Translations under genes and position numbers: made by a program | The notes under the pieces: model-generated | What the model saw: only the letters and a program-made list of their open reading frames with translations | Database searches by the model: none | What the model was told of the DNA's origin: nothing | In this document: positions 2,032 through 62,476 of the stretch, piece by piece | How positions within the stretch are numbered: the first letter of the stretch is position 1 | How the letters are laid out: every line of letters starts with the position of its first letter | Origin: an uncultured virus (IMG/VR IMGVR_UViG_3300027659_000012) | Taxonomy: Duplodnaviria; Heunggongvirae; Uroviricota; Caudoviricetes | IMG/VR virus record: IMGVR_UViG_3300027659_000012 | DNA length: 64,000 bases | Direction: 5' to 3' (one strand)

Positions 2032-2706
2032 TTAGGCTTCGAAGGTAGAAGTCTTCTCGAGCGCGATGAAATATTCAACTGCGACGGATTGATTCTTCCA
2101 GTGACTGATGAGCTTCGAGGAGATTTCCACGACATAGTTGCCGGCAATAACCTTGAGGTTCGAGATGAGGAACTGAAGATCAAAGGATGCCTTCGATGCG
2201 TTGTTGTCATCGATCACGATGCTAAAGGAGTTAGCAGTAGGATTCTTCGGATCAAGCACAGCCAAGGAGATGACGCCGTCTTTGCCTGTGATGGAGACTA
2301 CGCTATGTCCAAGGGCACCACCTGCCTTACGAATTTTGTTGAGACTATCAGCAGTGACTTCGACGGTCACATCCGCATTGGGCATATTGATCTTCTTCGA
2401 AGGAGTCGTCAGGATGCTTTCATCTGCGAAGCGATACTTAACCTTGGATTTGCCAGAGGAAAGGACCACGCTGTCCTCAGAGAAGTCAAGATCTGGTTCA
2501 CCGACCAAGTCGATTGCCGAGAGAAAGCCAGTCAAATCATAGATTCCAAATTGCTGAGGAAAAGCCTCGGCGATGGTGGCGATAGCCATGATATTCTTTG
2601 CCTCGCTGATAGTCGAGAGGGGTTCACCGGGTTTCACAACCAGATTGGAATTGATGGTTGCAAAGTTCTTAAGGATGCTGAGTGTATCGGGCGATAGTGT
2701 TGTCAT
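2032..2706 (-). CDS. gp45: DNA polymerase sliding clamp
   Basis: LSPDTLSILKNFATINSNL, FGIYDL, YFIALE motifs. Confidence 0.96.
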   Translation of the reverse strand: MTTLSPDTLSILKNFATINSNLVVKPGEPLSTISEAKNIMAIATIAEAFPQQFGIYDLTGFLSAIDLVGEPDLDFSEDSVVLSSGKSKVKYRFADESILTTPSKKINMPNADVTVEVTADSLNKIRKAGGALGHSVVSITGKDGVISLAVLDPKNPTANSFSIVIDDNNASKASFDLQFLISNLKVIAGNYVVEISSKLISHWKNQSVAVEYFIALEKTSTFEA

Positions 2707-2715
2707 GATATGATT

Positions 2716-2745
2716 ATTATATATTGTTTTTGTGAGATTGTAAAC
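2716..2745 (-). promoter_or_regulatory. T4-like early promoter upstream of gp45
   Basis: GTTTAC-N18-TATAAT on - strand. Confidence 0.55.
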
Positions 2746-2753
2746 CTAATTCT

Positions 2754-3047
2754 TTAGTTTTTATTGGAGTCAAATTCGAAGTAGAACATCATGCAACAGA
2801 TCGCATGAGCAGCATGATGAAGGCCAGTTTCTGGATCATGAGATTCGCCCTTCAAGAGAGCCCACATGTGTCGCATGGCAGCCGAGAAGTAGCGTATCTT
2901 GCCATCCTCGACGATACGCCAATTGTCTCTGGCGTACTTAGCAGTTCCAAATGTGAGAACCTTCACCACTTCCTCGAGCGCGAAGGGAGGAACCAGACTA
3001 TAGTCAGGCTTCTCGTTATCAAATTTAAGTCCGATTGGTTTCTTCAT
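2754..3047 (-). CDS. dATP/dGTP diphosphohydrolase domain protein (DUF5664-like)
   Basis: KFDNEKPDYSLVP...VLTFGTAKYARDNW...AAMRH...DPETGLHHAAHA. Confidence 0.85.
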   Translation of the reverse strand: MKKPIGLKFDNEKPDYSLVPPFALEEVVKVLTFGTAKYARDNWRIVEDGKIRYFSAAMRHMWALLKGESHDPETGLHHAAHAICCMMFYFEFDSNKN

Positions 3048-3058
3048 AATAAAGGAAA

Positions 3059-3092
3059 GGAATGAGGCGAGAGCGAATCATCGCCTCATTCC
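3059..3092 (-). terminator. Rho-independent terminator
   Basis: ggaatgaggcga / tcgcctcattcc 12-bp stem followed by T-rich run on - strand. Confidence 0.65.
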
Positions 3093-3101
3093 AATTAATG
3101 C

Positions 3102-3383
3102 TTATCGGGCACTCTTCTTGCTCGAACGCTTTGCGACTGGCTTTTCGGCAGCCAACGAATAGACGGTACTAACGTTGCCGCTACGATCAGCGGTGCGAGC
3201 AGCCTCGATATCGGCGCCGATCGAACGCAGATGGTTGATCACGCGACGTGGATCACGGACACCGGCATTGCGGGCATCTTGGGCCGAGAACGTAACGCCG
3301 GAGAGGAGGAACGTCAGGAGCGCCTCGCGTTGGCTGGTGCGGTTGATCATGGAGGTCAGTTTTTGTGTCAGTTTCTTTGTCAT
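3102..3383 (-). CDS. Small winged-helix/HTH DNA-binding protein
   Basis: Basic 93 aa; PRRVINHLRSIG...VYSL pattern. Confidence 0.6.
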   Translation of the reverse strand: MTKKLTQKLTSMINRTSQREALLTFLLSGVTFSAQDARNAGVRDPRRVINHLRSIGADIEAARTADRSGNVSTVYSLAAEKPVAKRSSKKSAR

Positions 3384-3444
3384 ATGTGTGTTGTTTGTGT
3401 GTTGGTGGACTCAAAGAGGCGTGAGTCCTTTCGCCATGAGAGCA

Positions 3445-4590
3445 TTAGAATGGATACGGTTCGCTCGGTTCGCTCGGTTCGCTCGCGGTGAGAAGCGGAG
3501 CGACCTGCTTATCGGCATCGATCTTGGTATAGAGGTCTAAGAAAGCCGAGCGAGTATCGTCATCGAAGCGGGCGATGCACATCATGATGGACTTCATGCG
3601 ATCCTTGAAGATCGAGTGAGCCTTGACGATATGGCACAGACGACGAGTAGAGATGAGTTCATCGACACCTTCGGCTTCGTAGGTCTTGCGAATAACACCG
3701 GACCAAGCGATCAGCTTGTCGCAGAATTCAGTGTCATCCACCTCCAGTGCCTCCATGTGCTTAGAGACGATGGTGTGCTCGACAGAGGAGGATGGATATG
3801 GTTGGTCGATGGTGGCAACGAAACGCTCAATGAATGCCTCGTCGATGATGTTGGCAGCGCTGTAGCGACCGTCTTCGCTGCCACGACCCTTGGTGTTGGC
3901 AGTCGCGATCACATTGAAGCCAGGAGCAGGCGATACGACCTGACCAATCTTCTTGATGAGGACTGGCTTGCCCTCGAGAATGCCTTGAAGGCACATAATC
4001 TTGTTGGATCCGCGATCCAACTCGTCGATCAAGAGGATGCAGCCTTTCTCCATGGCCTTGATGACTGGTCCTTTGTGGAAGACAGTCTCGCCATTGACCA
4101 GACGAAAGCCGCCGATCAAGTCATCCTCATCCGTCTCGGGCGAGATTTGAACCCGAATGTATTCACGCTTGGCCTTAGCGCAGGCTTGCTCAACCATCAT
4201 GGTCTTGCCGTTGCCGCTCATGCCAGAGATGTAGAGTGGAAAGAACATGCGAGAATCAATGATCTTGCGCACGGACTTGTATTCGCCCCATTGGACGAAG
4301 GTGGAATCATTTGTTGGGATAAAAACGTCTTCGTTCATGAGGGATGCGATAGGCTGTTGAGGCGTCACCGTTTGAATAAGCTCGACCTTGGAGGCAGAGG
4401 AAGAGGCAGCAGTGCGAAGTGAATAGGCTCCACGACCAACCTTGTTGGAATCGTCAAGGAATTCTTTCTTGATCTGGTTGTAAGTCATGCCGTTTTGGCG
4501 GCCGATGTCATAGATCACCGAGGACTTGAATGAGGAAGTGTCGCCCGGAAGGGACATGAGGGCAGCGATAGTTGATTCAATATTTGTCAT
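3445..4590 (-). CDS. cobS: CobS/MoxR-like AAA+ ATPase
   Basis: GMSGNGKT, LLIDELD, ATANTKGRG, STRRL motifs. Confidence 0.9.
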   Translation of the reverse strand: MTNIESTIAALMSLPGDTSSFKSSVIYDIGRQNGMTYNQIKKEFLDDSNKVGRGAYSLRTAASSSASKVELIQTVTPQQPIASLMNEDVFIPTNDSTFVQWGEYKSVRKIIDSRMFFPLYISGMSGNGKTMMVEQACAKAKREYIRVQISPETDEDDLIGGFRLVNGETVFHKGPVIKAMEKGCILLIDELDRGSNKIMCLQGILEGKPVLIKKIGQVVSPAPGFNVIATANTKGRGSEDGRYSAANIIDEAFIERFVATIDQPYPSSSVEHTIVSKHMEALEVDDTEFCDKLIAWSGVIRKTYEAEGVDELISTRRLCHIVKAHSIFKDRMKSIMMCIARFDDDTRSAFLDLYTKIDADKQVAPLLTASEPSEPSEPYPF

Positions 4591-7365: not shown

Positions 7366-9087
7366 TTATGCAGACTCCATCATCCTCGAGAAGTTCTTGA
7401 TCTTCTCAAACTCGATCTTTCGCTCAAATTTGCTCTCGAGAATATCCTGTTTGTGGCTGATCACGAAGACATTTGTCTCGGCATCGAGCGTATTGAGGAT
7501 TTTCATCAGGTTATCGATGCCATCCGCATCCAGAGATGCATCGAAGGTTTCATCGAGAATCATAAGGTTGGTGTTGGCCGAATTCTTCATCTTGGCCACT
7601 GCTCTCCAGGCAAACAGCAGACTCAGATCGATTTTTTGTTTTTCACCTTCTGAGAATGAACTGTAGCTAAAGTCATCCCTATGACGAGACTTGATCTGCT
7701 CATTGAAGCTCTCATCCAGATTGAACGAAACGAAGAAGTCAAAGATCTGAAGGTAATGATTGATGAGCTTGTTCATGACCGGCAAATATTGGCGAATGAT
7801 CTTGGTCTTGATGCCAGTATCCTTGAGAAGTTCGGCGATCACTTCATTATAGGTTCGGTCCTCGATCTGAGAGCTTTTCAGGTCGCTCAGTGTGTCCTTC
7901 TCTTCTCGCAGATTCTCGAGCAGCGTCATGGCAAAGGAGGTATCACTCTCTGTAGAGGATTGGCGCAGATACTTGTTAAGATCGGTGATGCGACTCTCGA
8001 GTTGAGCGATCATAACATTATTGACAGTGATTTCCTTCTGAAGGTCGCCGAGCTCATCATAGGCATCTGATGCTTCATTGTAGCTCTGCTGAGTCTCAGC
8101 CATCTTTGCCTTGAGCATGTCATAGCCTTCTTGAAGTTCGACGGCTTTCTCTTTACAACCATCAAGCTTATGCTGCTTCATGTCGCTCTCGAGCTTTTGC
8201 TGACACGTAGGACATTCATCGTTACCTTCATAGAATTTTGCCTCGGTGACTACTTTAGCAATATTGTCCTTAATCTGCTTCTCATAAGAGAGCAGCGAAG
8301 TGCGAGTGGATTCTGCCTTACTCAAGGTAAGTTTCACACCAGCGGCTCGATCGCTCCAAATCTCCTTGTTCGAGGCATTCGTCTCCTGAAGTTTCTCGAC
8401 GTTGGAGGTGAGAGTGTCGATCTCGTCGTTGTACTTGGCGGCATTATTTTCGTCGATCTGCTTGAGCGAATCGATATGCTTGCTCTGAATGATGATCTTT
8501 TCCTTGACCAAGACGAGATGGTTCTCGGTGTCCTTAATGGTATCCTTTAACTTGGCATTCCGCTCTTTCAGAGCCACGTTCATCTTGGTAAAGATATTGA
8601 TATCCAATAAGTCTTCAATCACTTCACGCCTATGATTGGCGCTCAGTTGCATGAATGGAATAAAGTTGCTCGAACCCAGCACCACAACCTGATGAAAGCT
8701 CTTATGATTGAGTTTGAGGATATTGGTCTCTAGTAATTTTTGATAATCCCGAGAATGGGATTCTTGATTGATCATCACTCCATTTTGCCAGATTTCAAAG
8801 ATGCCCGGTTTAATGCCTCTGATGATCTTGTACGCGATTGAGCCGATAGAGAATTCGACTGTGACCAGACAATTCTTACCATTGATGCTGTTGACCAGCT
8901 GAGGCTTATTGATGGTTCGATGCGGTTTACCAAACAAGGCAAAAGATAAGGCATCGAGCATCGTAGATTTACCGGCACCATTTGCTCCGACCACCAAAGT
9001 CGAGTTGCCAGGATTCAAATTCACGACGATCTCATTATCACCGCTACTTAAGAAATTTTTGTATGAAAGTTTAAGAAATGAAACCAT
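7366..9087 (-). CDS. gp46: Recombination endonuclease ATPase subunit (Rad50/SbcC-like)
   Basis: GANGAGKST, CPTC zinc hook, FSEGE signature, LDETFD. Confidence 0.97.
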   Translation of the reverse strand: MVSFLKLSYKNFLSSGDNEIVVNLNPGNSTLVVGANGAGKSTMLDALSFALFGKPHRTINKPQLVNSINGKNCLVTVEFSIGSIAYKIIRGIKPGIFEIWQNGVMINQESHSRDYQKLLETNILKLNHKSFHQVVVLGSSNFIPFMQLSANHRREVIEDLLDINIFTKMNVALKERNAKLKDTIKDTENHLVLVKEKIIIQSKHIDSLKQIDENNAAKYNDEIDTLTSNVEKLQETNASNKEIWSDRAAGVKLTLSKAESTRTSLLSYEKQIKDNIAKVVTEAKFYEGNDECPTCQQKLESDMKQHKLDGCKEKAVELQEGYDMLKAKMAETQQSYNEASDAYDELGDLQKEITVNNVMIAQLESRITDLNKYLRQSSTESDTSFAMTLLENLREEKDTLSDLKSSQIEDRTYNEVIAELLKDTGIKTKIIRQYLPVMNKLINHYLQIFDFFVSFNLDESFNEQIKSRHRDDFSYSSFSEGEKQKIDLSLLFAWRAVAKMKNSANTNLMILDETFDASLDADGIDNLMKILNTLDAETNVFVISHKQDILESKFERKIEFEKIKNFSRMMESA

Positions 9088-9719
9088 CTTCTTGTCTAAA
9101 TTGTTTTTGTAAATTAGTTAACCACGGTAGCATTTGAAGATTTTCTTTAATAGATAATTCTTCAGCAGTCATTCCTTTTTCCCATCCTTCTTTAATTGAT
9201 ATAATATGATCTAATTGATAAGCGCCGGACACACCGCACAATCCTCGTTTATAATCGTTTGGGTTGATTTCATCTTTGTGTTTATTATATGTATGACGTG
9301 TTAACGCATGAACTGCATTAGAAAATTTAGTATATTCTTTGAGATTTGGATTTCGTATTGGTTTAGGGCATGGTCCTCTAGTTTTTGACATTTTTGACCT
9401 AAATGATTCAGATATATACATACATTTTCTAGAACAACATCTATTTAATTCGTTTTCCAGCTGGAATGGATAATAATAGACATCAATTTCGCATACAGGA
9501 CATTTTCTAAATCCTCCTCTACGTTTACTACCAGAACCAATTTTTCTTGCTGTTACACATATTTTATGCTTTTGTCTCCATCTTCTAATAGTAGAGTTTC
9601 CGACATTGAGTAATATAGCTGCATCTTCAGTTCTAATAGAGGCATCTGATAAAATAGTAATATCTTCAAGTTTGGGGTTAAACATACAAGTATTTATCAA
9701 TACCATTTTTGTATGAAAG
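9055..9719 (-). mobile_element. AT-rich HNH endonuclease cassette inserted in the gp46 5' end, bounded by 15-bp direct repeats
   Basis: atttttgtatgaaag at 9055-9069 and 9705-9719; composition shift; duplicated gp46 N-terminus. Confidence 0.8.
9071..9685 (-). CDS. HNH homing endonuclease with HTH and Zn-finger
   Basis: VGNSTIRRWR, CPVC...CCSRKC, YQLDHIISI...NLQMLPWLTN; probable start MFNPK 5 nt after GATAAATA. Confidence 0.8.
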   Translation of the reverse strand: MFNPKLEDITILSDASIRTEDAAILLNVGNSTIRRWRQKHKICVTARKIGSGSKRRGGFRKCPVCEIDVYYYPFQLENELNRCCSRKCMYISESFRSKMSKTRGPCPKPIRNPNLKEYTKFSNAVHALTRHTYNKHKDEINPNDYKRGLCGVSGAYQLDHIISIKEGWEKGMTAEELSIKENLQMLPWLTNLQKQFRQEDGFIS

Positions 9720-18772: not shown

Positions 18773-18798
18773 AAATTCTATTTATACTTTTTTAAGTT

Positions 18799-28204: not shown

Positions 28205-28729
28205 TTAAACTTCAGACATCACTTGCTCGAATGAGAACGGAGCCGGAGCAAAGGTGATCGAACCGCTAAGAGCAGTGCCTTTCACTTCTTGCAACCATTG
28301 ATAGACCGCGACAAGTTTAGGCTTGTCAGCAATTGTACCGGCTTCCTTTGCTTGCAACAGCAAGTCCATACAGGTAACCAGTCGTGATGCACCGAATCCT
28401 TGACGTTCGACGTGTGATTCACCCATCTCGATCTTCTTGGACAAAGGCATAGCATCTAATCTTGCCGTTTGATTAGCAGCGCGCTTGGATTCCATCTCTG
28501 CCTGCATTTCGCTTTGCCTGGCTTCCATGCGCTGTTGCATCGTGACCAGCTCTCCGTTTTCAAAGAAGTAAAAAACCTTTGGTTGACCATCTCTTCCGGC
28601 TTGAACTGTAGCAGCTTGTTCATCGGAGATTTCAACAATTGAATAGTTTTGTGAGTCGGCCAATTGTGTTGGCTCAGTGTCTTGAACGGTCAATACCGCT
28701 CCGCGTGGTCCTAATGTTGCAAATTTCAT
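28205..28729 (-). CDS. Hypothetical protein, possible fibre assembly chaperone
   Basis: Start MKFATL in ATGA overlap with sulfotransferase stop. Confidence 0.5.
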   Translation of the reverse strand: MKFATLGPRGAVLTVQDTEPTQLADSQNYSIVEISDEQAATVQAGRDGQPKVFYFFENGELVTMQQRMEARQSEMQAEMESKRAANQTARLDAMPLSKKIEMGESHVERQGFGASRLVTCMDLLLQAKEAGTIADKPKLVAVYQWLQEVKGTALSGSITFAPAPFSFEQVMSEV

Positions 28730-29523
28730 AGCGTGTTGATCCAGTTGAATTTCTCCTTGAGTGTTGTTGATAGTTGTTTTCCTAGAATTTCGTTGTAGTC
28801 CAGTTCGAGCGGACGAACAGTCGAACGAATCGTATGATCGCCGTATGGCCATCCCACATCATATTCTTTGGTGTACTGCTCGACATTGTCGAAGTCATGT
28901 GCATCAAACTCTAGACCCAGATATTGCCAAACTTTGGCCATTTCCTGAGCAGGCGATGCTGTTAGCTTGTCTGCATTGACAAAATGCAGACGATCCTTAA
29001 AACGAGTGACTGCATCATAGAGTCTCTCGATGGCGATGCCGACAGGAGCCGATGAGAGCCAGCCTTGAACTCGCTTTTCGATGGTGGTAGCGTTTGCAGG
29101 ATTTGCCTCCTCGAAGCCGTTGAAGGGCGAAGGATGCTTGCGACGAATCTTTTCCATGGAGCAGATGATGCCTCTTACGTCTCTCACCGGCACAATCACC
29201 TTGGCCTCGGGCCAGATCTGAAATAATTGATCCAGATGTCCGATGTACGAACGACATTTGTCTGCGACGATTGGACGATCTGTCAGTGAATCGAACGCAT
29301 GTGAACAACCTCCACGAACATAGTCAAAATACATCTTCTCGAGTACATCACCGGCGACGGCCTTGGCCTCCTCAGTCTGAAATACCTTTCGAGCGATGTA
29401 GCCAATCTCGTGAAGCGGACTGGTCGCCGTAGCATGAACAGCTGGGTTCTGGGCCAGCAGGTTACAGACCAGAGTAGAACACGCACGAGGAAGGCCGCTG
29501 ACGAAATGTATTGTTTTGCTCAT
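28726..29523 (-). CDS. Sulfotransferase family protein
   Basis: SGLPRACSTL PAPS-binding-like loop, DKCR, KVIVPVRD. Confidence 0.82.
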   Translation of the reverse strand: MSKTIHFVSGLPRACSTLVCNLLAQNPAVHATATSPLHEIGYIARKVFQTEEAKAVAGDVLEKMYFDYVRGGCSHAFDSLTDRPIVADKCRSYIGHLDQLFQIWPEAKVIVPVRDVRGIICSMEKIRRKHPSPFNGFEEANPANATTIEKRVQGWLSSAPVGIAIERLYDAVTRFKDRLHFVNADKLTASPAQEMAKVWQYLGLEFDAHDFDNVEQYTKEYDVGWPYGDHTIRSTVRPLELDYNEILGKQLSTTLKEKFNWINTL

Positions 29524-56956: not shown

Positions 56957-58034
56957 TCGAGTTTAATGCGGTTTTAAATGATTCCTCAAATGATGAGATA
57001 TATTGCGGGTCGATCACCGTTATATTTTTATGAGATTCATTAATGTTGAATTCATTTTGAACATAAGAGATATAATCCGAATTTGGATTTTTCAACGAAT
57101 GCATACTATAGCTTTGATTTAATGTCGAGATATGATCAAGCATTAGGCTATAGTATGAAACATATCGTTTGGATCCGTCATCTTCTTCTTTATAAAATGA
57201 ATATGAGGCATCATAAGAATTTTGCCAAATATCCGAAGGAATAAATTGAAGTTTAGGATAAACAAACAATTCCGGCGAGTCGTCTCTTAGCTTTTCATAT
57301 TCATAATATAATGCCGGGTCGGTAGTTTGCAACGATTGCAGAACTTTTTCATTCCATTCGATATCTAAAGCATGTATATCATCAAACGCCGTATCTCCTT
57401 CTGAGTATGGATTAATGAATTCAAGCGCATAATACGAAACGTGAACGCTAGGATTTTTATCATAAAATGCTTCATTGTCAATGTTTTCTATCCAAAGTTG
57501 AAGAGTAGAAGAATCAAATCGATTAATGTTCGCTGAGGCTATTGGTCCTGGACTAGCGTTATATGCGCTAAGATAAAGATATGGCAAATATTTTTCATCG
57601 AGCGGTAAACCTATAAAAGTATTATACAGATGCGTATAGGTAATGACTTGGCTATCCGTATCGTATGATCCTGAAATAGTATAAGTTTTATTCGGAATCG
57701 CTAATGGAACAAATGTTAAGACTGAATATTTTCCATATTCAGCTTCGACAAATTTATTAAATTCAAGATTATTGAGTGGCCAATTATTTAATCCTTCTTT
57801 TAAGAAATCATTGGTGATAAAGAATGTCCAGTAATAATCAGGACTTGCATATAAATTATTTGATACTATATCGGGTCTCTCTCCATCATTGATATAATAC
57901 GATTTATAAACACTAATCTGATCTATCAACTTATCGTTTACATCGACGTTACGAAAAATATCAGTAATGACCCGATTGACACCATTATCTTGCAGATCAA
58001 AAGATCTGAACGGAAACATTGAAAAGAATGACAT
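56949..58034 (-). CDS. gp53: Baseplate wedge component
   Basis: DGERPDIVS..LY.SPDYYW, WPL; start at MSFFSMFP. Confidence 0.85.
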   Translation of the reverse strand: MSFFSMFPFRSFDLQDNGVNRVITDIFRNVDVNDKLIDQISVYKSYYINDGERPDIVSNNLYASPDYYWTFFITNDFLKEGLNNWPLNNLEFNKFVEAEYGKYSVLTFVPLAIPNKTYTISGSYDTDSQVITYTHLYNTFIGLPLDEKYLPYLYLSAYNASPGPIASANINRFDSSTLQLWIENIDNEAFYDKNPSVHVSYYALEFINPYSEGDTAFDDIHALDIEWNEKVLQSLQTTDPALYYEYEKLRDDSPELFVYPKLQFIPSDIWQNSYDASYSFYKEEDDGSKRYVSYYSLMLDHISTLNQSYSMHSLKNPNSDYISYVQNEFNINESHKNITVIDPQYISSFEESFKTALNSNV

Positions 58035-58048
58035 ACTGTTTATTAATT

Positions 58049-59110
58049 TTAAAACCAATTTTTAACTGCATCAACGAATGACTTAGGGGCATTTGGGTCT
58101 TTAGAATTGGTTCCTATTAATCCATTTGCGCCTGGAGATCCTTGTAATGTACCAAGCGCATCAAAACCTATGGCTTTTTTGAGCTTTTCGTTCATCTTAT
58201 TCACTACAGCCTGAGTTATATTTTCACCCATATTGCTGCCATCCGCAGAAAATCCATGTTGCATATTTGAGATATCTCCTTGAGTCAATGCCTTGGTTTC
58301 GGTAAATGCTACCACCACATCGACTTCTAAAGGAGCCTTATCATTTCTCCACATCTTCGATGAAGAATTAAAATTGGTAGAAAGGTTCTGCAAATAGCAT
58401 TCATAGGGTTGAGGAAGATGCGGTAGAGGTTTAAGTTCGGGAAGGGATATATATTTAATCTGCCATTTGGGAGGAAAGCGAAGCTTCATGTTTTCTGCTC
58501 CCGTTACACCGGTCGGATACATACCTGAACGAAATGCAAATTGAATCTTCTTAATCATTTCAGATTCTTCCGGAGAACGAGCTATCATCTTGAACGTAAA
58601 AGAATGATTTCTTATACCAACACCATCAAAAGTAGTAACCGTATTTTTATTTTGGGTGATCTGCGTGACTGAGGCGATGCCCGCATTTATTTCAGCGTTG
58701 GCACTCGCGGCTTGCGCTAAGGTAGACAATGCTTCGCTTCTCGTTCCGGGCAAGAATTGGCTCAATATGTTTCCGGTCGCTCCGGATAAACCTTTACCTG
58801 CGGCTGTCCAACTTTCGGCAGTCACTCCTACCCTTGCGGCCTTTTGTGCGGCGAAGCCGAGTATGTTAAGATCTTGACCGCTATACGACATCGAATCGTT
58901 CATCTGAACACCCTCAGGCATTGGAAAATAAATGTTAGTATATCCTTGCAAAGGAACCATACACGTGAACTGAATCAATGGCCGATCCGGAACACTCATG
59001 ATATCGATAGGATAATATAAAGATCCACCCAACGAATTCGATATATTAAAAAGCTTTCGACTAGAAGCGAGTCCTACGATCTTTGTTGCGGTTGAAAATA
59101 TATTTGCCAT
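58049..59110 (-). CDS. gp48: Baseplate tail tube cap
   Basis: F.GVG.RNHSFTFKM.ARS.EES, FTETKALT. Confidence 0.8.
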   Translation of the reverse strand: MANIFSTATKIVGLASSRKLFNISNSLGGSLYYPIDIMSVPDRPLIQFTCMVPLQGYTNIYFPMPEGVQMNDSMSYSGQDLNILGFAAQKAARVGVTAESWTAAGKGLSGATGNILSQFLPGTRSEALSTLAQAASANAEINAGIASVTQITQNKNTVTTFDGVGIRNHSFTFKMIARSPEESEMIKKIQFAFRSGMYPTGVTGAENMKLRFPPKWQIKYISLPELKPLPHLPQPYECYLQNLSTNFNSSSKMWRNDKAPLEVDVVVAFTETKALTQGDISNMQHGFSADGSNMGENITQAVVNKMNEKLKKAIGFDALGTLQGSPGANGLIGTNSKDPNAPKSFVDAVKNWF

Positions 59111-59131
59111 AAATACCTAAATAGTATTTAT

Positions 59132-59293
59132 ATGGCGTATCGTGGAAAATATAGGGTGAAAAACCCAGAAAAATATGAAGGCGATCATACGCGAGTAGAA
59201 TATCGATCCCTCTGGGAGAGACAAGTTTTTAAGTTAACTTTCCCATTTTATAAATACATTAATGGAAGAATGGAGAAAAAGATTACTAGATAA
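59132..59293 (+). pseudogene. Orphan 5' stub of gp4
   Basis: MAYRGKYRVKNPEKYEGDHTRVEYRSLWERQVFK matches the gp4 N-terminus, then diverges to a stop at 59293. Confidence 0.85.
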
Positions 59294-59789
59294 CCCACCT
59301 CCATGCGCAAGTATTTTTGATCTAGAAGAATGGGAAGACATAGTTATCAATGAACTTACCGCAGATCCTAGTTTGTGGGGAGGAGCGTCATTTGGTCAAT
59401 TAACCGATGAGCATAAAGAAAATATATCTAAAACATTGATGGGACATTCGGTTTCAGCTGAAACTAGAAGAAAAATATCCGAAGCTGGAATCGGCAGAAT
59501 TAGTAGCAATGAAACTAATTCAAAACGAAGCAAAAGTATGAAAGGCAAAACTCATTCGACGCAAGCAAAACAAAAAATGAGAGAGAAAGCGTTAAACCGC
59601 CAACATACTGACGAAACTAAAGAAAAAATATCCAAAGCAGGAAGGGGTATTTTACGAAGTAAAGAATTTAAAGATAACTTAAAAGAAGTAGTTAAAGGTA
59701 GAATTCATATAACAAATGGAGAAATAAATAAATTTGTTCATAAAGAAAATATACCAGAAGGATTTTGGCCAGGAAGAATACTTAAATGA
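59262..59789 (+). CDS. NUMOD3-repeat DNA-binding protein (homing-endonuclease C-terminal type, no evident nuclease domain)
   Basis: Repeated H(S/T)xETxxKIS motifs, ITNG...IPEGFWPGR end; AT-rich; own TATAAATA. Confidence 0.75.
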   Translation: MEEWRKRLLDNPPPCASIFDLEEWEDIVINELTADPSLWGGASFGQLTDEHKENISKTLMGHSVSAETRRKISEAGIGRISSNETNSKRSKSMKGKTHSTQAKQKMREKALNRQHTDETKEKISKAGRGILRSKEFKDNLKEVVKGRIHITNGEINKFVHKENIPEGFWPGRILK

Positions 59790-60241
59790 GTAAATACTAT
59801 AGTGGAAGGTTTAGACCAAAAAATATCGAAAAGTATGAAGGCGATCATACAAATGTAAGATATAGATCCTCTTGGGAGAGAGCTGTTCTAAAGTGGTTAG
59901 ATGAGAATCCAAATGTTATAAAATATAGTTCAGAGGAAGTCGTAGTTCCTTATCGTTGCAAGACCGATAACAAGATGCATCGGTATTTCGTCGACATCAA
60001 AGTTCAATTTCGTGGAGGCGTCACGTACCTGATCGAGATCAAACCTAAAAAAGAGACAATGCCTCCGAAGGTGCGTGAACGTAAGACGCGAGGTTATCTG
60101 ATGGAGGTGATGACCTACGCCAAGAATATCTCTAAATGGGAGAGTGCCACCGAATATGCCAAGGATCGTGGATGGATATTTGAGATTTGGCACGAGGATA
60201 CAATCAAGAGTCTTGGTATTAAATTGCTCACCTCTAAGTGA
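59786..60241 (+). CDS. gp4: Head completion nuclease (TnsA-like PD-(D/E)XK)
   Basis: YRSSWE, HRYFVD, LIEIKP, N..KW..A. Confidence 0.92.
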   Translation: MSKYYSGRFRPKNIEKYEGDHTNVRYRSSWERAVLKWLDENPNVIKYSSEEVVVPYRCKTDNKMHRYFVDIKVQFRGGVTYLIEIKPKKETMPPKVRERKTRGYLMEVMTYAKNISKWESATEYAKDRGWIFEIWHEDTIKSLGIKLLTSK

Positions 60242-60257
60242 TTTATAAATAGATCTT

Positions 60258-60863
60258 ATGCGTAAAGAAGTTTTTAGTGACATTCAAAAGAAGTTTTCTT
60301 CCTCTGGATTGGGTGCTAGGACTACCGAGGCGCGTGATTGGTTTTTACAGAATCTTAAGAACTATTCCAGCCTCAATCGCAACAATCTATTAAAGGATTC
60401 TGCGTTGACTCGCAAGACATCGATCGACTCAAAGGCCACATCGATCGGCAAGATGTATATGTTTAGGTACGACCCGAAACATAAAGAAACTTTACCTTAC
60501 TTCGATAAATTTCCTTTGATCCTTATGGTGGGTCCTGCCGAGGGAGGTTTCTACGGACTGAATTTACACTATCTTCCACCTAGACTTCGTGCATTATTGT
60601 TTGATCGTCTATTACCTTATACGAACAACGATAAGTTTGATCAGACAACTCGCTTTCGTCTGACGTATCAGTTACTCACCTCGGTCTCTAAATTAAAAAT
60701 ATTTGCTCCGTGCTTCAAACACTATCTACTGAAGCATGTCACATCCAACACCATGGAAGTGCCTGCCAATGAATGGGAAGTCGCGATGTTTCTTCCTACG
60801 GATCAGTTCGCATATCAAACCAAGCGAACGGTCTGGAATAAAAGTAAAAAATCAATAATGTAA
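60258..60863 (+). CDS. gp2: DNA end protector
   Basis: YDPKHKETLPYFDKFPL, GLNLHYLPP, CFKHYL. Confidence 0.93.
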   Translation: MRKEVFSDIQKKFSSSGLGARTTEARDWFLQNLKNYSSLNRNNLLKDSALTRKTSIDSKATSIGKMYMFRYDPKHKETLPYFDKFPLILMVGPAEGGFYGLNLHYLPPRLRALLFDRLLPYTNNDKFDQTTRFRLTYQLLTSVSKLKIFAPCFKHYLLKHVTSNTMEVPANEWEVAMFLPTDQFAYQTKRTVWNKSKKSIM

Positions 60864-60864
60864 T

Positions 60865-61575
60865 ATGTCTATATTTTCATCGATCACCGGTCTTATAACA
60901 AAGACAGAAAATTATATCAATCCGAACACCATTGATGACTTCAAAAGTTCGATAAGTAGGCGTAATGGCCTGGCGATGACGAACCGTTTCTTGATAATGG
61001 TTCAACCTCCTAGTCAATCCTTACTTAATTTTAATATAGGCGACCTTGCCAGCAAAGTATTGCTCGGCAATAAGATTAATGTATCTGACTTTATCAATGA
61101 TCCGCGTGACATCGCGATGCTTTGTGAAAGCTGCTCTCTTCCGGGAAGACAGATCCAAACCACGGAATATTCGGCCTATAGACAACCAGTAAAAATTCCA
61201 ACCGGTTATATCAACGAAGACGTTACGATGACCTTTCATCTTACGAACGATTACTATATTCGTAAGGTATTCGATAAGTGGCATGCTCTGGTGATTAACT
61301 ATGATTCGTACCTTTTGAATTATAATAAAGACTTTTGTGCAGATATTATCATTCAACAGCTCGATATGAATAATAAACCGGTCTATGCGGTAAAATTAAA
61401 AAATGCATATCCAGTAGGAATAAACAGCGTCGCCTTAGACAACACTCAATCGGATTCTCCTCAAAAATTAGTGATTCAACTCACGTATGAAGACTTTGAA
61501 CCAATGGGTGCCATCGCATCTACGGTTGCAGGAGTCAAGAACAGCATCACGGGTATCCTGAATAAATTGATATAA
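60865..61575 (+). CDS. Baseplate tail tube initiator, gp54/gp19-like
   Basis: GLAMTNRF, CESCSLPG, NAYP. Confidence 0.75.
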   Translation: MSIFSSITGLITKTENYINPNTIDDFKSSISRRNGLAMTNRFLIMVQPPSQSLLNFNIGDLASKVLLGNKINVSDFINDPRDIAMLCESCSLPGRQIQTTEYSAYRQPVKIPTGYINEDVTMTFHLTNDYYIRKVFDKWHALVINYDSYLLNYNKDFCADIIIQQLDMNNKPVYAVKLKNAYPVGINSVALDNTQSDSPQKLVIQLTYEDFEPMGAIASTVAGVKNSITGILNKLI

Positions 61576-61586
61576 ATTATATTACT

Positions 61587-62297
61587 ATGGCATTACCCAC
61601 AATCAACACACCGAAATATCAACTTAAGTTACCTTCCACTGGAGAAGCCATAACTTATCGTCCGTTTTTGGTAAAAGAAGAAAAGATCTTGCTGATCGCG
61701 CAAGAAACCAAAGATCCAAAACAAATGATGATGGCCATGAGAGACATCATCTCGGCATGTACGTTTGAAAAGGTAAAAACAACTGAAATTACCGGATTCG
61801 ATCTTGAATACATCTTCTTAAAACTCAGAGCAAAGAGCGTCGGTGAAAATGCCGATATCAAGATTCAATGCACTCATTGCGAAGAATTTAATGACATCTC
61901 GATCAACCTCGACGATATTTCAGTGGTCGTTCCGGATAAGAGCAACAACGTGATCATGCTGACGGATTCCATCGGTGTCACGCTTAAGTATGTGACCGCC
62001 GAGAAGATGGAAAAGATCACGGCGCTGATCGATACAAATCAGATGGCAGTCATCAATGAACTGATCATCAACTCCATTGAATCCATCTTTGATGCCGATA
62101 ATGTCTATGCTGCCGCAGATTCTACTCCCGCAGAACTTACGCAATTCATCGAATCTCTGAATAGAAAACAAATGGAAAAGATCGAGGCATTCATCGCGAA
62201 TGCTCCGAAGCTTCAACACACCTGTGAATTCACTTGTTGCAAGTGTGAACTAGAAAACTCCATCAATCTTCAAGGAATTCAGTCTTTTTTCGAATAA
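61587..62297 (+). CDS. gp26: Baseplate hub assembly chaperone
   Basis: MALPTINTPKY, YRPFLVKEEKILL, LRAKSVGE, two CxxC. Confidence 0.92.
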   Translation: MALPTINTPKYQLKLPSTGEAITYRPFLVKEEKILLIAQETKDPKQMMMAMRDIISACTFEKVKTTEITGFDLEYIFLKLRAKSVGENADIKIQCTHCEEFNDISINLDDISVVVPDKSNNVIMLTDSIGVTLKYVTAEKMEKITALIDTNQMAVINELIINSIESIFDADNVYAAADSTPAELTQFIESLNRKQMEKIEAFIANAPKLQHTCEFTCCKCELENSINLQGIQSFFE

Positions 62298-62476
62298 GCC
62301 TCTCGCACGAATCATTGGAAAATTTGTATCAAACGAATTTTGCTCTGATGCAACATCATAAATATAGCCTAACGGAATTAGATGATATGTTACCGTGGGA
62401 GAGGGAAATCTATACCGCATTACTCATAGAACATCTAAAAGAAGAAAAACGTAAGAACGAATCGGCTAATCACTAA
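62285..62476 (+). CDS. gp51: Baseplate hub assembly catalyst, in -1 frame of gp26
   Basis: Manual translation FFRISLSHESLENLYQTNFALMQHHKYSLTELDDMLPWEREIY...NH*. Confidence 0.8.
   Translation, partial: FFRISLSHESLENLYQTNFALMQHHKYSLTELDDMLPWEREIYTALLIEHLKEEKRKNESANH

Follow-up and report, generated by a model that had tools for sequence, protein, structure and literature searches.

The 64,000-nucleotide stretch analysed here (IMG/VR record IMGVR_UViG_3300027659_000012, referred to below as the window) is from an uncultured T4-like myovirus in which gp4, the gene of the head completion protein, is interrupted between codons 33 and 34 by an insert of about 710 bases. The insert contains a late promoter, an open reading frame (ORF) matching NUMOD3, and a foreign gp4 start of about 50 codons that runs into the phage's own gp4 body; the native start is left upstream as a 34-codon stub. 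We consider it likely that this is a mobile cassette of the homing-endonuclease type, which occupies an essential gene together with its own late promoter and a replacement for the start of that gene. Related contigs are denoted by L numbers and strain variants from sequencing runs by X numbers. The features of the cassette locus, in window positions, were as follows.

59132..59233, plus strand: native gp4 start, a stub of 34 codons (phrog_218, nhmmer profile, identity to L002 and L003)
59231..59940, no strand assigned: inserted cassette of ~710 bases, comprising a spacer, a late promoter, the NUMOD3 ORF, and a foreign gp4 start (homology edges, G+C)
59249..59256, plus strand: cassette late promoter TATAAATA, 5 bases before the ATG of the ORF
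59262..59789, plus strand: homing-endonuclease-like ORF of 175 amino acids (Pfam NUMOD3, PHROG homing-endonuclease families)
59786..59940, plus strand: foreign replacement gp4 start (MSKYYSGRFRPKN..YRSSWERAVLKW..), joined to the ORF stop by an ATGA overlap
59786..60241, plus strand: working chimeric gp4, head completion protein of 151 amino acids (phrog_218, E 9.4e-53)

The native gp4 start is retained as a stub

The ATG at 59132 opens MAYRGKYRVKNPEKYEGDHTRVEYRSLWERQVFK, and its frame continues into the insert as far as a stop at 59293, giving an ORF of 53 amino acids. Residues 1-35 aligned with positions 2-36 of the PHROG family phrog_218, 'head closure' (gp4), with an E of 7.9e-10. At the DNA level, a profile built from 25 unique uninterrupted gp4 starts was matched by nhmmer with an E of 7.1e-23, its positions 1-101 corresponding to window 59132-59232. 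Because of these two matches, the resemblance of the stub to gp4 is not a matter of chance.

The closest phages other than copies of the same phage, L002 and L003 (gp4 88% identical), have an uninterrupted gp4. The stub's amino acid sequence was 88% identical to L002 and 85% to L003, whereas that of the working head reached 62.5%; the corresponding DNA identities were 78% for the stub and 58-63% for the working head. The body of the working gene (from about residue 50) was 95-97% identical to that of L002 and L003 and formed a clade with them (support 99/98). These identities, together with the gp4 body clade, indicate that the original gp4 start of the phage survives in the stub and that the working start is a replacement. 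An earlier sequence-only reading of this stretch had described a gp4 N-terminus of 34 amino acids from the ATG at 59132, followed by a break in homology, and had suggested testing whether the stub matches the uninterrupted allele better than the downstream start does; the coordinates and both profile matches agree with the former, and the amino acid identities show that the stub does match better. When both ends of the 61 ORFs of the window were scanned, only gp4 and gp46 had an adjacent duplicate of their own start.

Boundaries, composition, and promoter of the cassette

On the left, the match to empty alleles stops at 59230-59232, and the empty allele found in run X5 parts from the window at 59230/59231, between gp4 codons 33 and 34. 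This junction between stub and insert lies 28 bases before the ATG of the ORF, the promoter included. On the right, an X6 contig showed no difference from the window in 59787-59940, and all of its listed differences were at 59941 or beyond. Since the differences of the X6 and X5 contigs on the side of the gp4 body begin at 59941, the right edge of the cassette was placed at about 59940, very near the end at 59935 given by the sequence-only reading. The AT-rich character noted in that reading was also evident. The G+C content was 34.1% for the ORF and 32.7% for gp4 codons 1-50, against 44.8% for the rest of gp4, 41.2% for the stub, and 42.8% for the whole window.

The exact octamer TATAAATA occurred 12 times in the window, compared with 3.9 ± 2.0 expected, and none of 100 shuffled sequences reached 12. 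Compared with the ORF table, each of the 12 sites precedes an ORF start on the same strand, at a distance of between a few and about 80 bases. One of them, at 60244-60251, precedes gp2, and the related ORFs in L117 and L119 are also preceded by TATAAATA. As the octamer stands upstream of the cassette ORF and likewise in L117 and L119, the cassette is considered to bring a T4-type late promoter of its own, in agreement with the claim made from the sequence alone.

As a separate observation, the sites at 18779, 20952, 23262, 27792, 31023, 37513, 37909, 49452, 52987, 59125, 59249, and 60244 together form a clean map of late promoters of the T4 type, whose leaders are very short.

A foreign head on a native body

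The stop of the ORF overlaps the second, full gp4 start at 59786 in an ATGA, as had been read from the sequence. This overlap is homologous in four lineages: AAATGAGTAAATAC in the window, AAATGAGTAAC in L114, ATTGAGTAAGTAT in L117, where the gp4 start codon is TTG, and CTATGAAGTAC in L116. In each of the four, the purine-rich codons of the conserved C-terminal ..GR.. of the ORF precede the gp4 start by 12-16 bases, and could serve as the ribosome-binding site of gp4. Within the new head, the two differences listed for X5 (59809 and 59827) both fall on synonymous third positions, which, for two sites only, fits a translated head.

Over 38 residues, the closest heads to the new one were those of L117, L119, L097, and L096 (66-68%), whose gp4 bodies were only 48-60% identical to the body in the window. 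Head and body are therefore discordant, and a mosaic boundary of the kind left by co-conversion is present beside the ORF at about 59940. The description of the downstream start as a diverged one is thus supported by its low G+C content, its grouping with ORF-linked heads, and this sharp boundary.

Empty alleles and strain variants

Relatives of gp4 were encoded by 77 viral contigs. One of them, L001, is the same phage with the same arrangement (100% identity over 4223 bases); among the other 76 viral gp4 loci, none had two gp4 starts. In the alignment with the empty allele of L002, window 58833-59230 corresponds to L002 2473-2867 and window 59827-62476 to L002 2804-5450, so that about 64 bases of the single L002 gp4 gene correspond to two places in the window.

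Subsequently, contigs from four runs of four studies were aligned to 58500-60600. The junction between stub and insert was spanned by X6 record 21 (59087-59486; 401 bases, 9 differences), and that between ORF and gp4 by X5 record 16 (59297-59962; 666 bases, 11 differences), in which 4 listed differences fall in 59941-59956. X6 record 24 (59787-60086) had 16 differences, spaced like third codon positions. The flanks of the X6 variant differed from the window by about 9-11% (13/151 in 58950-59100 and about 16/146 in 59941-60086), whereas the contig pieces that include the cassette differed by about 2% or less. Low divergence of the cassette between diverged flanks has the look of a recently transferred unit.

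In run X5, record 15 matched 59125-59230 with 7 differences and then continued as CGA TGG CTG GAC GAC AAC GTC AAC GTG (R W L D D N V N V). The record represents an uninterrupted gp4 allele, whose start is about 93% identical to the stub. Because the same run holds both empty and cassette-bearing alleles, donor-like and recipient-like phages co-occur. Presence and absence at one site was accordingly seen three times: L002 and L003 are empty, X5 has both states, and L096 is empty while L097 is filled. Relatives with an empty allele, the lack of which would have spoken against the sequence-only reading, are thus represented by L002, L003, and the X5 contig.

The NUMOD3 ORF and its family

The ORF matched Pfam NUMOD3 with an E of 1.3e-10 (41.4 bits; cut-off 20.4) and the PHROG homing-endonuclease families phrog_314, phrog_10820, and phrog_655, so the NUMOD3 ORF that had been read behind the promoter was recovered at 175 amino acids. 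It consists of a conserved helical N-terminal domain of about 35 amino acids, NUMOD3 repeats, and a small C-terminal beta hairpin. Its nearest homologues in a large protein collection were at most 35% identical and mostly 220-300 amino acids long; among 25 homologue matches (the ORF itself excluded), 10 had both GIY-YIG and NUMOD3. In the MAFFT alignment, the helical domain of the ORF falls opposite the final helices of the GIY-YIG domain.

When the first 55 residues of the ORF were used in an exhaustive profile search, 41 proteins were recovered at E ≤ 0.001, of which about 30 were proteins of 120-217 amino acids matching at their N-terminus. Across 26 aligned members, which represent clusters at 50% identity, the N-terminal ~35 residues (W..L..NPP....EW..IV.NEL) were conserved and were followed by NUMOD3 and variable C-terminal DNA-binding modules; Pfam detected NUMOD3 in 19/26 and I-TevI_DNA-bd in 6/26. 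We had also considered that the ORF might be a GIY-YIG gene cut short by the left junction. This was dropped, as L097 and about 30 small proteins have the same N-terminus, and because those other small proteins share it, the short N-terminus was not made by the junction.

Other searches with the ORF were less productive. No match was obtained by tblastn of its first 55 amino acids against cultured phages, a word-based search with residues 1-50 recovered the ORF protein alone, and comparison with the viral contigs gave its own phage and seven weak matches (29-53% identity). In the ESM Atlas, residues 1-47 gave a weak lead to SegE_GIY-YIG fragments (score 0.89). The single-sequence AlphaFold model was poor, with a predicted local distance difference test (pLDDT) of 48.8; the alignment-based model reached 84.2, with values of 92-96 for residues 1-30, modelled as three short helices.

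Aside from this, gp4 (window 59786-60241) matched Pfam Tn7_TnsA-like_N, a TnsA-like endonuclease N-terminal domain, with an E of 6.2e-18, and an endonuclease-like fold in the partner gene of a nuclease-less homing-type ORF is curious. A complex prediction of gp4 with the N-terminal domain of the ORF gave a score of 0.29 and a mark of 0.32, which is not evidence either way.

Related cassettes in other lineages and putative target codons

The ORF family was found upstream of gp4 in four further lineages besides that of the window, and it also occurs at the other end of gp4 and at another gene, as follows.

L114/L115 and L116: ORF on the strand of gp4, flanked by the gp48-like gene and by gp4, with an overlap of ORF stop and gp4 start
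L117/L119: arranged as in L114-L116, preceded by a 12-codon gp4 stub (MAYRGKFTPKHP)
L097: 33-codon stub, then the ORF in inverted orientation, then gp4
L120: ORF at 2977-3468, antisense between the gp4 3' end and gp2, overlapping the gp4 stop
L121-L123: ORF upstream of gp47

L118, in the viral collection, is apparently the same contig as L097. With the DNA profile of uninterrupted gp4 starts, the stub of L097 was detected at E 4.5e-19 over profile positions 2-98, and those of L117 and L119 at E 2e-5 over positions 1-38. In the tree of gp4 bodies, the ORF-bearing lineages were scattered among ORF-less ones. The ORFs of the window and L097 are only 37% identical and oppositely oriented, yet their stubs end within one codon of each other (profile positions 101 and 98). 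That such divergent ORFs share a stub end points to a site-specific event at codon 33/34.

Next to this site, YRSLWER[QN].F[RK]W was present in all 25 unique uninterrupted heads (from 44 loci), and both the window stub and the L097 stub retained YRSLWERQ. A departure from the YRSLWER[QN].F consensus is seen in all five lineages that have the ORF upstream of gp4, whereas L120, with the ORF at the other end of gp4, keeps the consensus. The working heads beside an upstream ORF were as follows.

Window: YRSSWERAVL
L097: YRSSWERTTF
L117/L119: YRSSWERSTF
L116: YRSHWEFQLF
L114/L115: HRSLWERVTF

The YRSLWERQ.F codons thus look like a recognition site with resistant alleles, although the lineages are few and phylogenetically non-independent. 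The suggestion made earlier that the new head may be immune to re-cleavage is consistent with its changes in codons that are invariant in the 25 uninterrupted starts.

Several further observations concern these relatives. L096, the ORF-less sister of L097, has a gp4 head of the 'cassette' type (YRSSWERAAF) and may be a lineage that lost the ORF. Its gp48/gp4 spacer of 58 bases (L096:1115-1181) contains GTGGCATA, resembling the first bases of the L097 stub; taken by eye for a stub remnant, GTGGCATA was not supported by the DNA profile at E ≤ 10, nor were the remnants seen by eye in the gp48-ORF spacers of L114/L115 and L116. At L122:2977-3477, a small NUMOD3 family member of 166 amino acids has a stop touching the gp47 start. 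Because members stand upstream of gp47 in L121-L123, the small NUMOD3 family also targets other core genes. Escherichia phage Ec_Makalu_002 (L204) carries an HNH gene at 2254-3276, antisense between gp4 and gp2 and overlapping the gp4 stop; the arrangement is different, and this gene was set aside as a parallel.

A second case at gp46

The same design was found at gp46, as had been claimed, with a different and unrelated ORF.

9737-9705, minus strand: 11-codon gp46 stub MVTFTSLSYKN, its ATG one base after the gp47 stop
9706-9071, minus strand: inserted ORF of 211 amino acids, with a weak N-terminal helix-turn-helix (HTH) and, by eye, an HNH-like C-terminus
7366..9087, minus strand: working gp46, SbcC-like, 573 amino acids (phrog_77, E 9.6e-159)

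The true gp46 start at 9087 reads MVSFLKLSYKN (MVSFLKLSYKNFLSSG...), with its first 6 codons differing from the stub. The inserted ORF has its ATG in an overlap with the final codon of the stub and terminates 17 bases within gp46. The G+C content was 31.6% for this ORF against 44.3% for gp46. The insert is flanked by a 15-base exact direct repeat, CTTTCATACAAAAAT (minus strand; 9055-9069 and 9705-9719), which ends the stub and recurs in the working gp46 start. The stub and the working start each match L125 at 6/11 residues, too short a stretch to tell which copy is native.

In 80 loci compared, 3 of which end too early to tell, gp46 starts 0-17 bases after gp47 in 76 of the 77 informative ones, the closest relatives L125 and L126 included. 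The sole other insert between gp47 and gp46, at L173:2412-3087, is a full SegE-type gene with GIY-YIG (Pfam E 2.8e-7) and NUMOD3 (E 2e-10) and no stub apparent by eye. For the ORF in the window, an HNH-like motif (..LDHIISI..NLQMLPWLTNLQK) was visible by eye, but Pfam up to E 5 gave HTH_17 (E 2e-4) and HTH_23 only and so did not confirm an HNH domain, and a sequence search of the PDB gave 0 matches. Its nearest ESM Atlas clusters were viral, with PF01844 on 48-100% of members and scores of 0.90-0.93, which is a lead only.

Gene order around gp4

The following features adjoin the cassette locus.

58049-59110, minus strand: gp48-like baseplate tail-tube-cap gene (phrog_230, E 7.2e-39)
59108..59115, plus strand: near-consensus late promoter CATAAATA upstream of the native gp4 start, read from the sequence
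59125..59132, minus strand: TATAAATA, exact octamer, late promoter of the gp48-like gene
After 60241, next gene downstream of gp4: gp2, the DNA-end-protector gene

A divergent promoter spacer of 21 bases separates the gp48-like gene from the gp4 stub. CATAAATA shares bases with the CAT that is the start codon of the divergent gp48-like gene and, by analogy with the 12 exact TATAAATA sites, would act as a late promoter; the last base of the TATAAATA at 59125..59132 is the A of the ATG of the stub. The stub still carries a promoter and an ATG.

Through PHROG matches, replication and late-transcription genes of the gp44/45/46/47/55 type were identified in this T4-like myovirus, along with a full virion module. 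For the sequencing runs that contain this stretch, the metagenome labels are freshwater, river, runoff, sediment, or estuary. When 58000-61600 was compared with cultured phages by blastn, the short matches were confined to the neighbouring DNA-end-protector gene. Elsewhere in the window, the ORF at 28726-29523 belongs to the sulfotransferase family (Pfam Sulfotransfer_3, E 3.1e-16), and a gene pair on the minus strand at 3445-7289 matches PHROG 'porphyrin biosynthesis' (phrog_249) and 'peptidase' (phrog_459).

Proposed origin and alternative explanations

We propose that a double-strand break would have been made within the conserved codons for YRSLWERQ.F in a gp4 as yet lacking the cassette, presumably by the ORF product, and that the break would have been repaired from a cassette-bearing phage genome. 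On the right side, homologous recombination in the gp4 body would have been resolved near 59940; on the left, the end would have been joined at the break in a one-sided, microhomology-mediated manner, and the native head would thereby have survived as a stub. The chimeric gp4 would be read from the cassette promoter by translational coupling, and splicing would not be needed. Once formed, the unit could home into the cut site like an intron, with the stub and the gp48-like gene as its left homology arm and the gp4 body as its right arm, and the recoded head YRSSWERAVL, in which the target is missing, would protect the carrier. The tight left junctions in the window, in L097, and at gp46 fit such a defined unit better than repeated random scars.

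Several observations weigh against this origin, some of which favour one of the alternatives discussed below. A close donor was found neither for the new head in the JGI metagenomes, where the best relative was 68% identical, nor for the ORF among the viral contigs. The strain contigs are 130-766 bases long, some of them at a depth of about 4. The working head of L097 resembles the head of the ORF-less L096, and its stub is the odd one out, a pattern that agrees with the proposed origin only on the assumption that L096 was co-converted or has lost the ORF. Three more such points concern the nuclease domain, the stub, and the DNA sequence of the new head, and are taken up with the respective alternatives.

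First, the ORF could be a non-endonuclease, that is, a domesticated or defunct DNA-binding relic, with the cassette spread through general recombination or through nucleases that co-infecting phages supply in trans. By Pfam (GIY-YIG, HNH, LAGLIDADG, PD-(D/E)xK, EDxHD, and His-Cys), no recognisable nuclease domain was present in the ORF or in any of the 26 family members; the GIY and YIG blocks that form the core of its nearest homologues are missing from the ORF in the alignment with them; and Foldseek of the ORF model against the PDB gave no fold match at E ≤ 0.001. The element may thus be defunct or moved by something else, and trans homing of a defunct endonuclease has been described (PMC2790892, partial text), I-TevIII moved by MobE being the analogy. 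However, the N-terminal ~35 residues are strongly conserved and fold confidently, which speaks for a function under selection; at gp4, the family is found repeatedly at one site, with changes in the adjoining target codons; and the cassette differs between strains far less than both flanks. We regard a relic as unlikely, although it has to be taken seriously.

Second, the stub could be a mere scar of faulty one-sided homing without a role in later spread, the normal home of the ORF being the gp48/gp4 spacer as in L114-L116; each stub would then have arisen independently by illegitimate joining of the left side of the break. With the DNA profile at E ≤ 10, no stub was detected in L114, L115, L116, or L096, and because L114/L115 and L116 carry the ORF upstream of gp4 without a significant stub, a stub is not obligatory. 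The stubs also differ in length (34, 33, and about 12 codons), and in T4 introns one-sided homing that leaves microhomology junctions is on record (PMC2988022, partial text, crediting Parker et al. 1999). On the other hand, random illegitimate joints should scatter, whereas the left junctions are very near the ORF. The alignment of the L097 stub runs into the stop codon of its ORF, and at gp46 the ATG of the ORF overlaps the last stub codon; oppositely oriented ORFs of 37% identity go with stub ends at nearly the same profile position; and the variant strain X6, with 9 differences in 400 bases, has the same left junction. Both a mere scar and independent origins of the stubs therefore appear improbable to us.

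Third, the gp4 start could have been duplicated in place, with the ORF inserted later between the tandem copies and the downstream copy diverging thereafter. Indeed, the DNA of the new head is nearer to the stub (69.6% identity, 22/34 third positions) than to other starts (53-63%). The new head nevertheless shares the low G+C content of the ORF, groups with heads beside related ORFs in distant phages, has the stop/start overlap in common with them, and ends at a sharp boundary in the strain variants, and a tandem duplication is very improbable.

Fourth, the insert could be an intron or be otherwise removed from the RNA, with the stub as the true first exon, and joining stub codon 34 to the W codon at about 59894 would in fact give an intact gp4. 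An Rfam scan of 58900-60400 on both strands, group I and II introns included, gave 0 matches at E ≤ 1, the downstream copy has its own start codon in the conserved overlap with the ORF stop, and the two X5 differences in the new head are synonymous. Expression without splicing, as claimed in the sequence-only reading, is consistent with the absence of Rfam introns and with the complete downstream start, and an intron is even less probable than a tandem duplication. Finally, a chimeric assembly, which that reading had named as a possible refutation, is practically out of the question, because X6 record 21 and X5 record 16, from runs of other studies, bridge both junctions and the second public contig L001 has the identical arrangement.

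Comparison with known systems

The nearest described parallel to the gp4 cassette is the 'gene hybrid' made by mobile endonuclease ORFs (mORFs) in fungal mitochondria, which the cassette mirrors at the 5' end. Such hybrids were described for atp6 of Allomyces macrogynus and for atp6, atp9, cox2, and nad3 of Glomus; the endonuclease ORF brings a foreign C-terminus, and the native C-terminus is left downstream, closer to those of relatives (PMC3630166, partial text). In both cases, a protein gene has received an ORF along with a foreign copy of a gene terminus, seemingly from another lineage and without splicing, and the native terminus, here apparently the gp4 stub, stays as an unused duplicate that matches close relatives best. 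The mitochondrial hybrids, in contrast, concern the 3' (C-terminal) end, with an ORF that is often in phase, and contain LAGLIDADG or GIY-YIG endonucleases, whereas the gp4 cassette concerns the 5' end of a phage gene rather than an organelle gene, with the ORF upstream as a separate cistron that has its own late promoter, an ATGA restart, and no recognisable nuclease domain.

Among phage elements, the seg and mob genes are free-standing homing endonuclease genes of T-even phages. The gp4 cassette resembles intronless homing by such endonucleases in that a small ORF with DNA-binding modules of the homing-endonuclease type lies beside a conserved T4-like gene, is present or absent among relatives, is accompanied by co-converted flanking markers, and goes with an altered target in the carrier (PMC2988022, partial text). 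Free-standing endonuclease genes, however, are either intergenic or divide a gene into two pieces that both work (PMC2988022, partial text), whereas the gp4 cassette is inside a coding sequence and is compensated by a duplicated, recoded start. Examples of such genes in pieces are mobE in Aeh1 nrdA, mobA in T4 gene 39/60, and seg in gene 43 of phage 25 (PMC2988022, partial text). There, too, an endonuclease gene is inside an essential phage gene without an intron, but both pieces are translated and assembled and nothing is duplicated, while gp4 needs only the downstream full-length copy.

One-sided break repair with microhomology junctions is a laboratory observation made with introns and engineered homology (PMC2988022, partial text). 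It offers a tested route for the step that we propose for the first formation of the stub, although the available part of that review describes no natural product with a rescued gene start. With I-TevI/Seg-type GIY-YIG endonucleases (PF01541 and PF07460), the ORF family has NUMOD3 repeats in common, and six of its aligned members have I-TevI_DNA-bd; the N-terminal beta-sheet core of GIY-YIG, with its GIY and YIG motifs and catalytic Arg, is absent from the ORF, which has the conserved helical domain of about 35 amino acids instead. The available text of PMC2988022 contains 0 occurrences of 'duplicat' or 'truncat', and a replaced phage gene start is not described in the accessible parts of PMC2988022, PMC8351571, and PMC10448857. 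Full-text literature searches, whose coverage does not extend to subscription papers, likewise gave no phage description of one.

Taken together, these findings support a real case of homing-endonuclease biology with a mitochondrial precedent, and they support the sequence-only reading. The gp4 locus shows that a selfish gene of the endonuclease type can occupy an essential virion gene without an intron or intein, by replacing its start, and the direct comparative evidence on insertion site, boundaries, and recent movement is unusual. Short 'orphan' ORFs beside endonuclease genes may be dead gene starts, and the N-termini of core phage proteins can differ in history from the rest of the protein, by which phylogenies and annotation can be misled. 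The recoded head and the stub together indicate the likely recognition site.

A broader interpretation is possible, although we consider it doubtful: phage homing elements might have a third way into essential coding sequences besides introns and inteins, namely insertion at their own cut site near the 5' end with recoded, cut-resistant codons, a promoter, a coupled restart, and the stub as left arm, and the gp4 family might be a new kind of homing protein. The helical domain of about 35 residues is the sole part of that protein outside the DNA-binding modules, and possibly represents the last helices of a GIY-YIG fold. The family is conserved, tied to one codon of gp4, and apparently recently mobile, yet without a known nuclease domain; if this interpretation is true, its proteins would have to be nucleases of a new minimal or oligomeric sort, or else cut with the help of a recruited partner nuclease.

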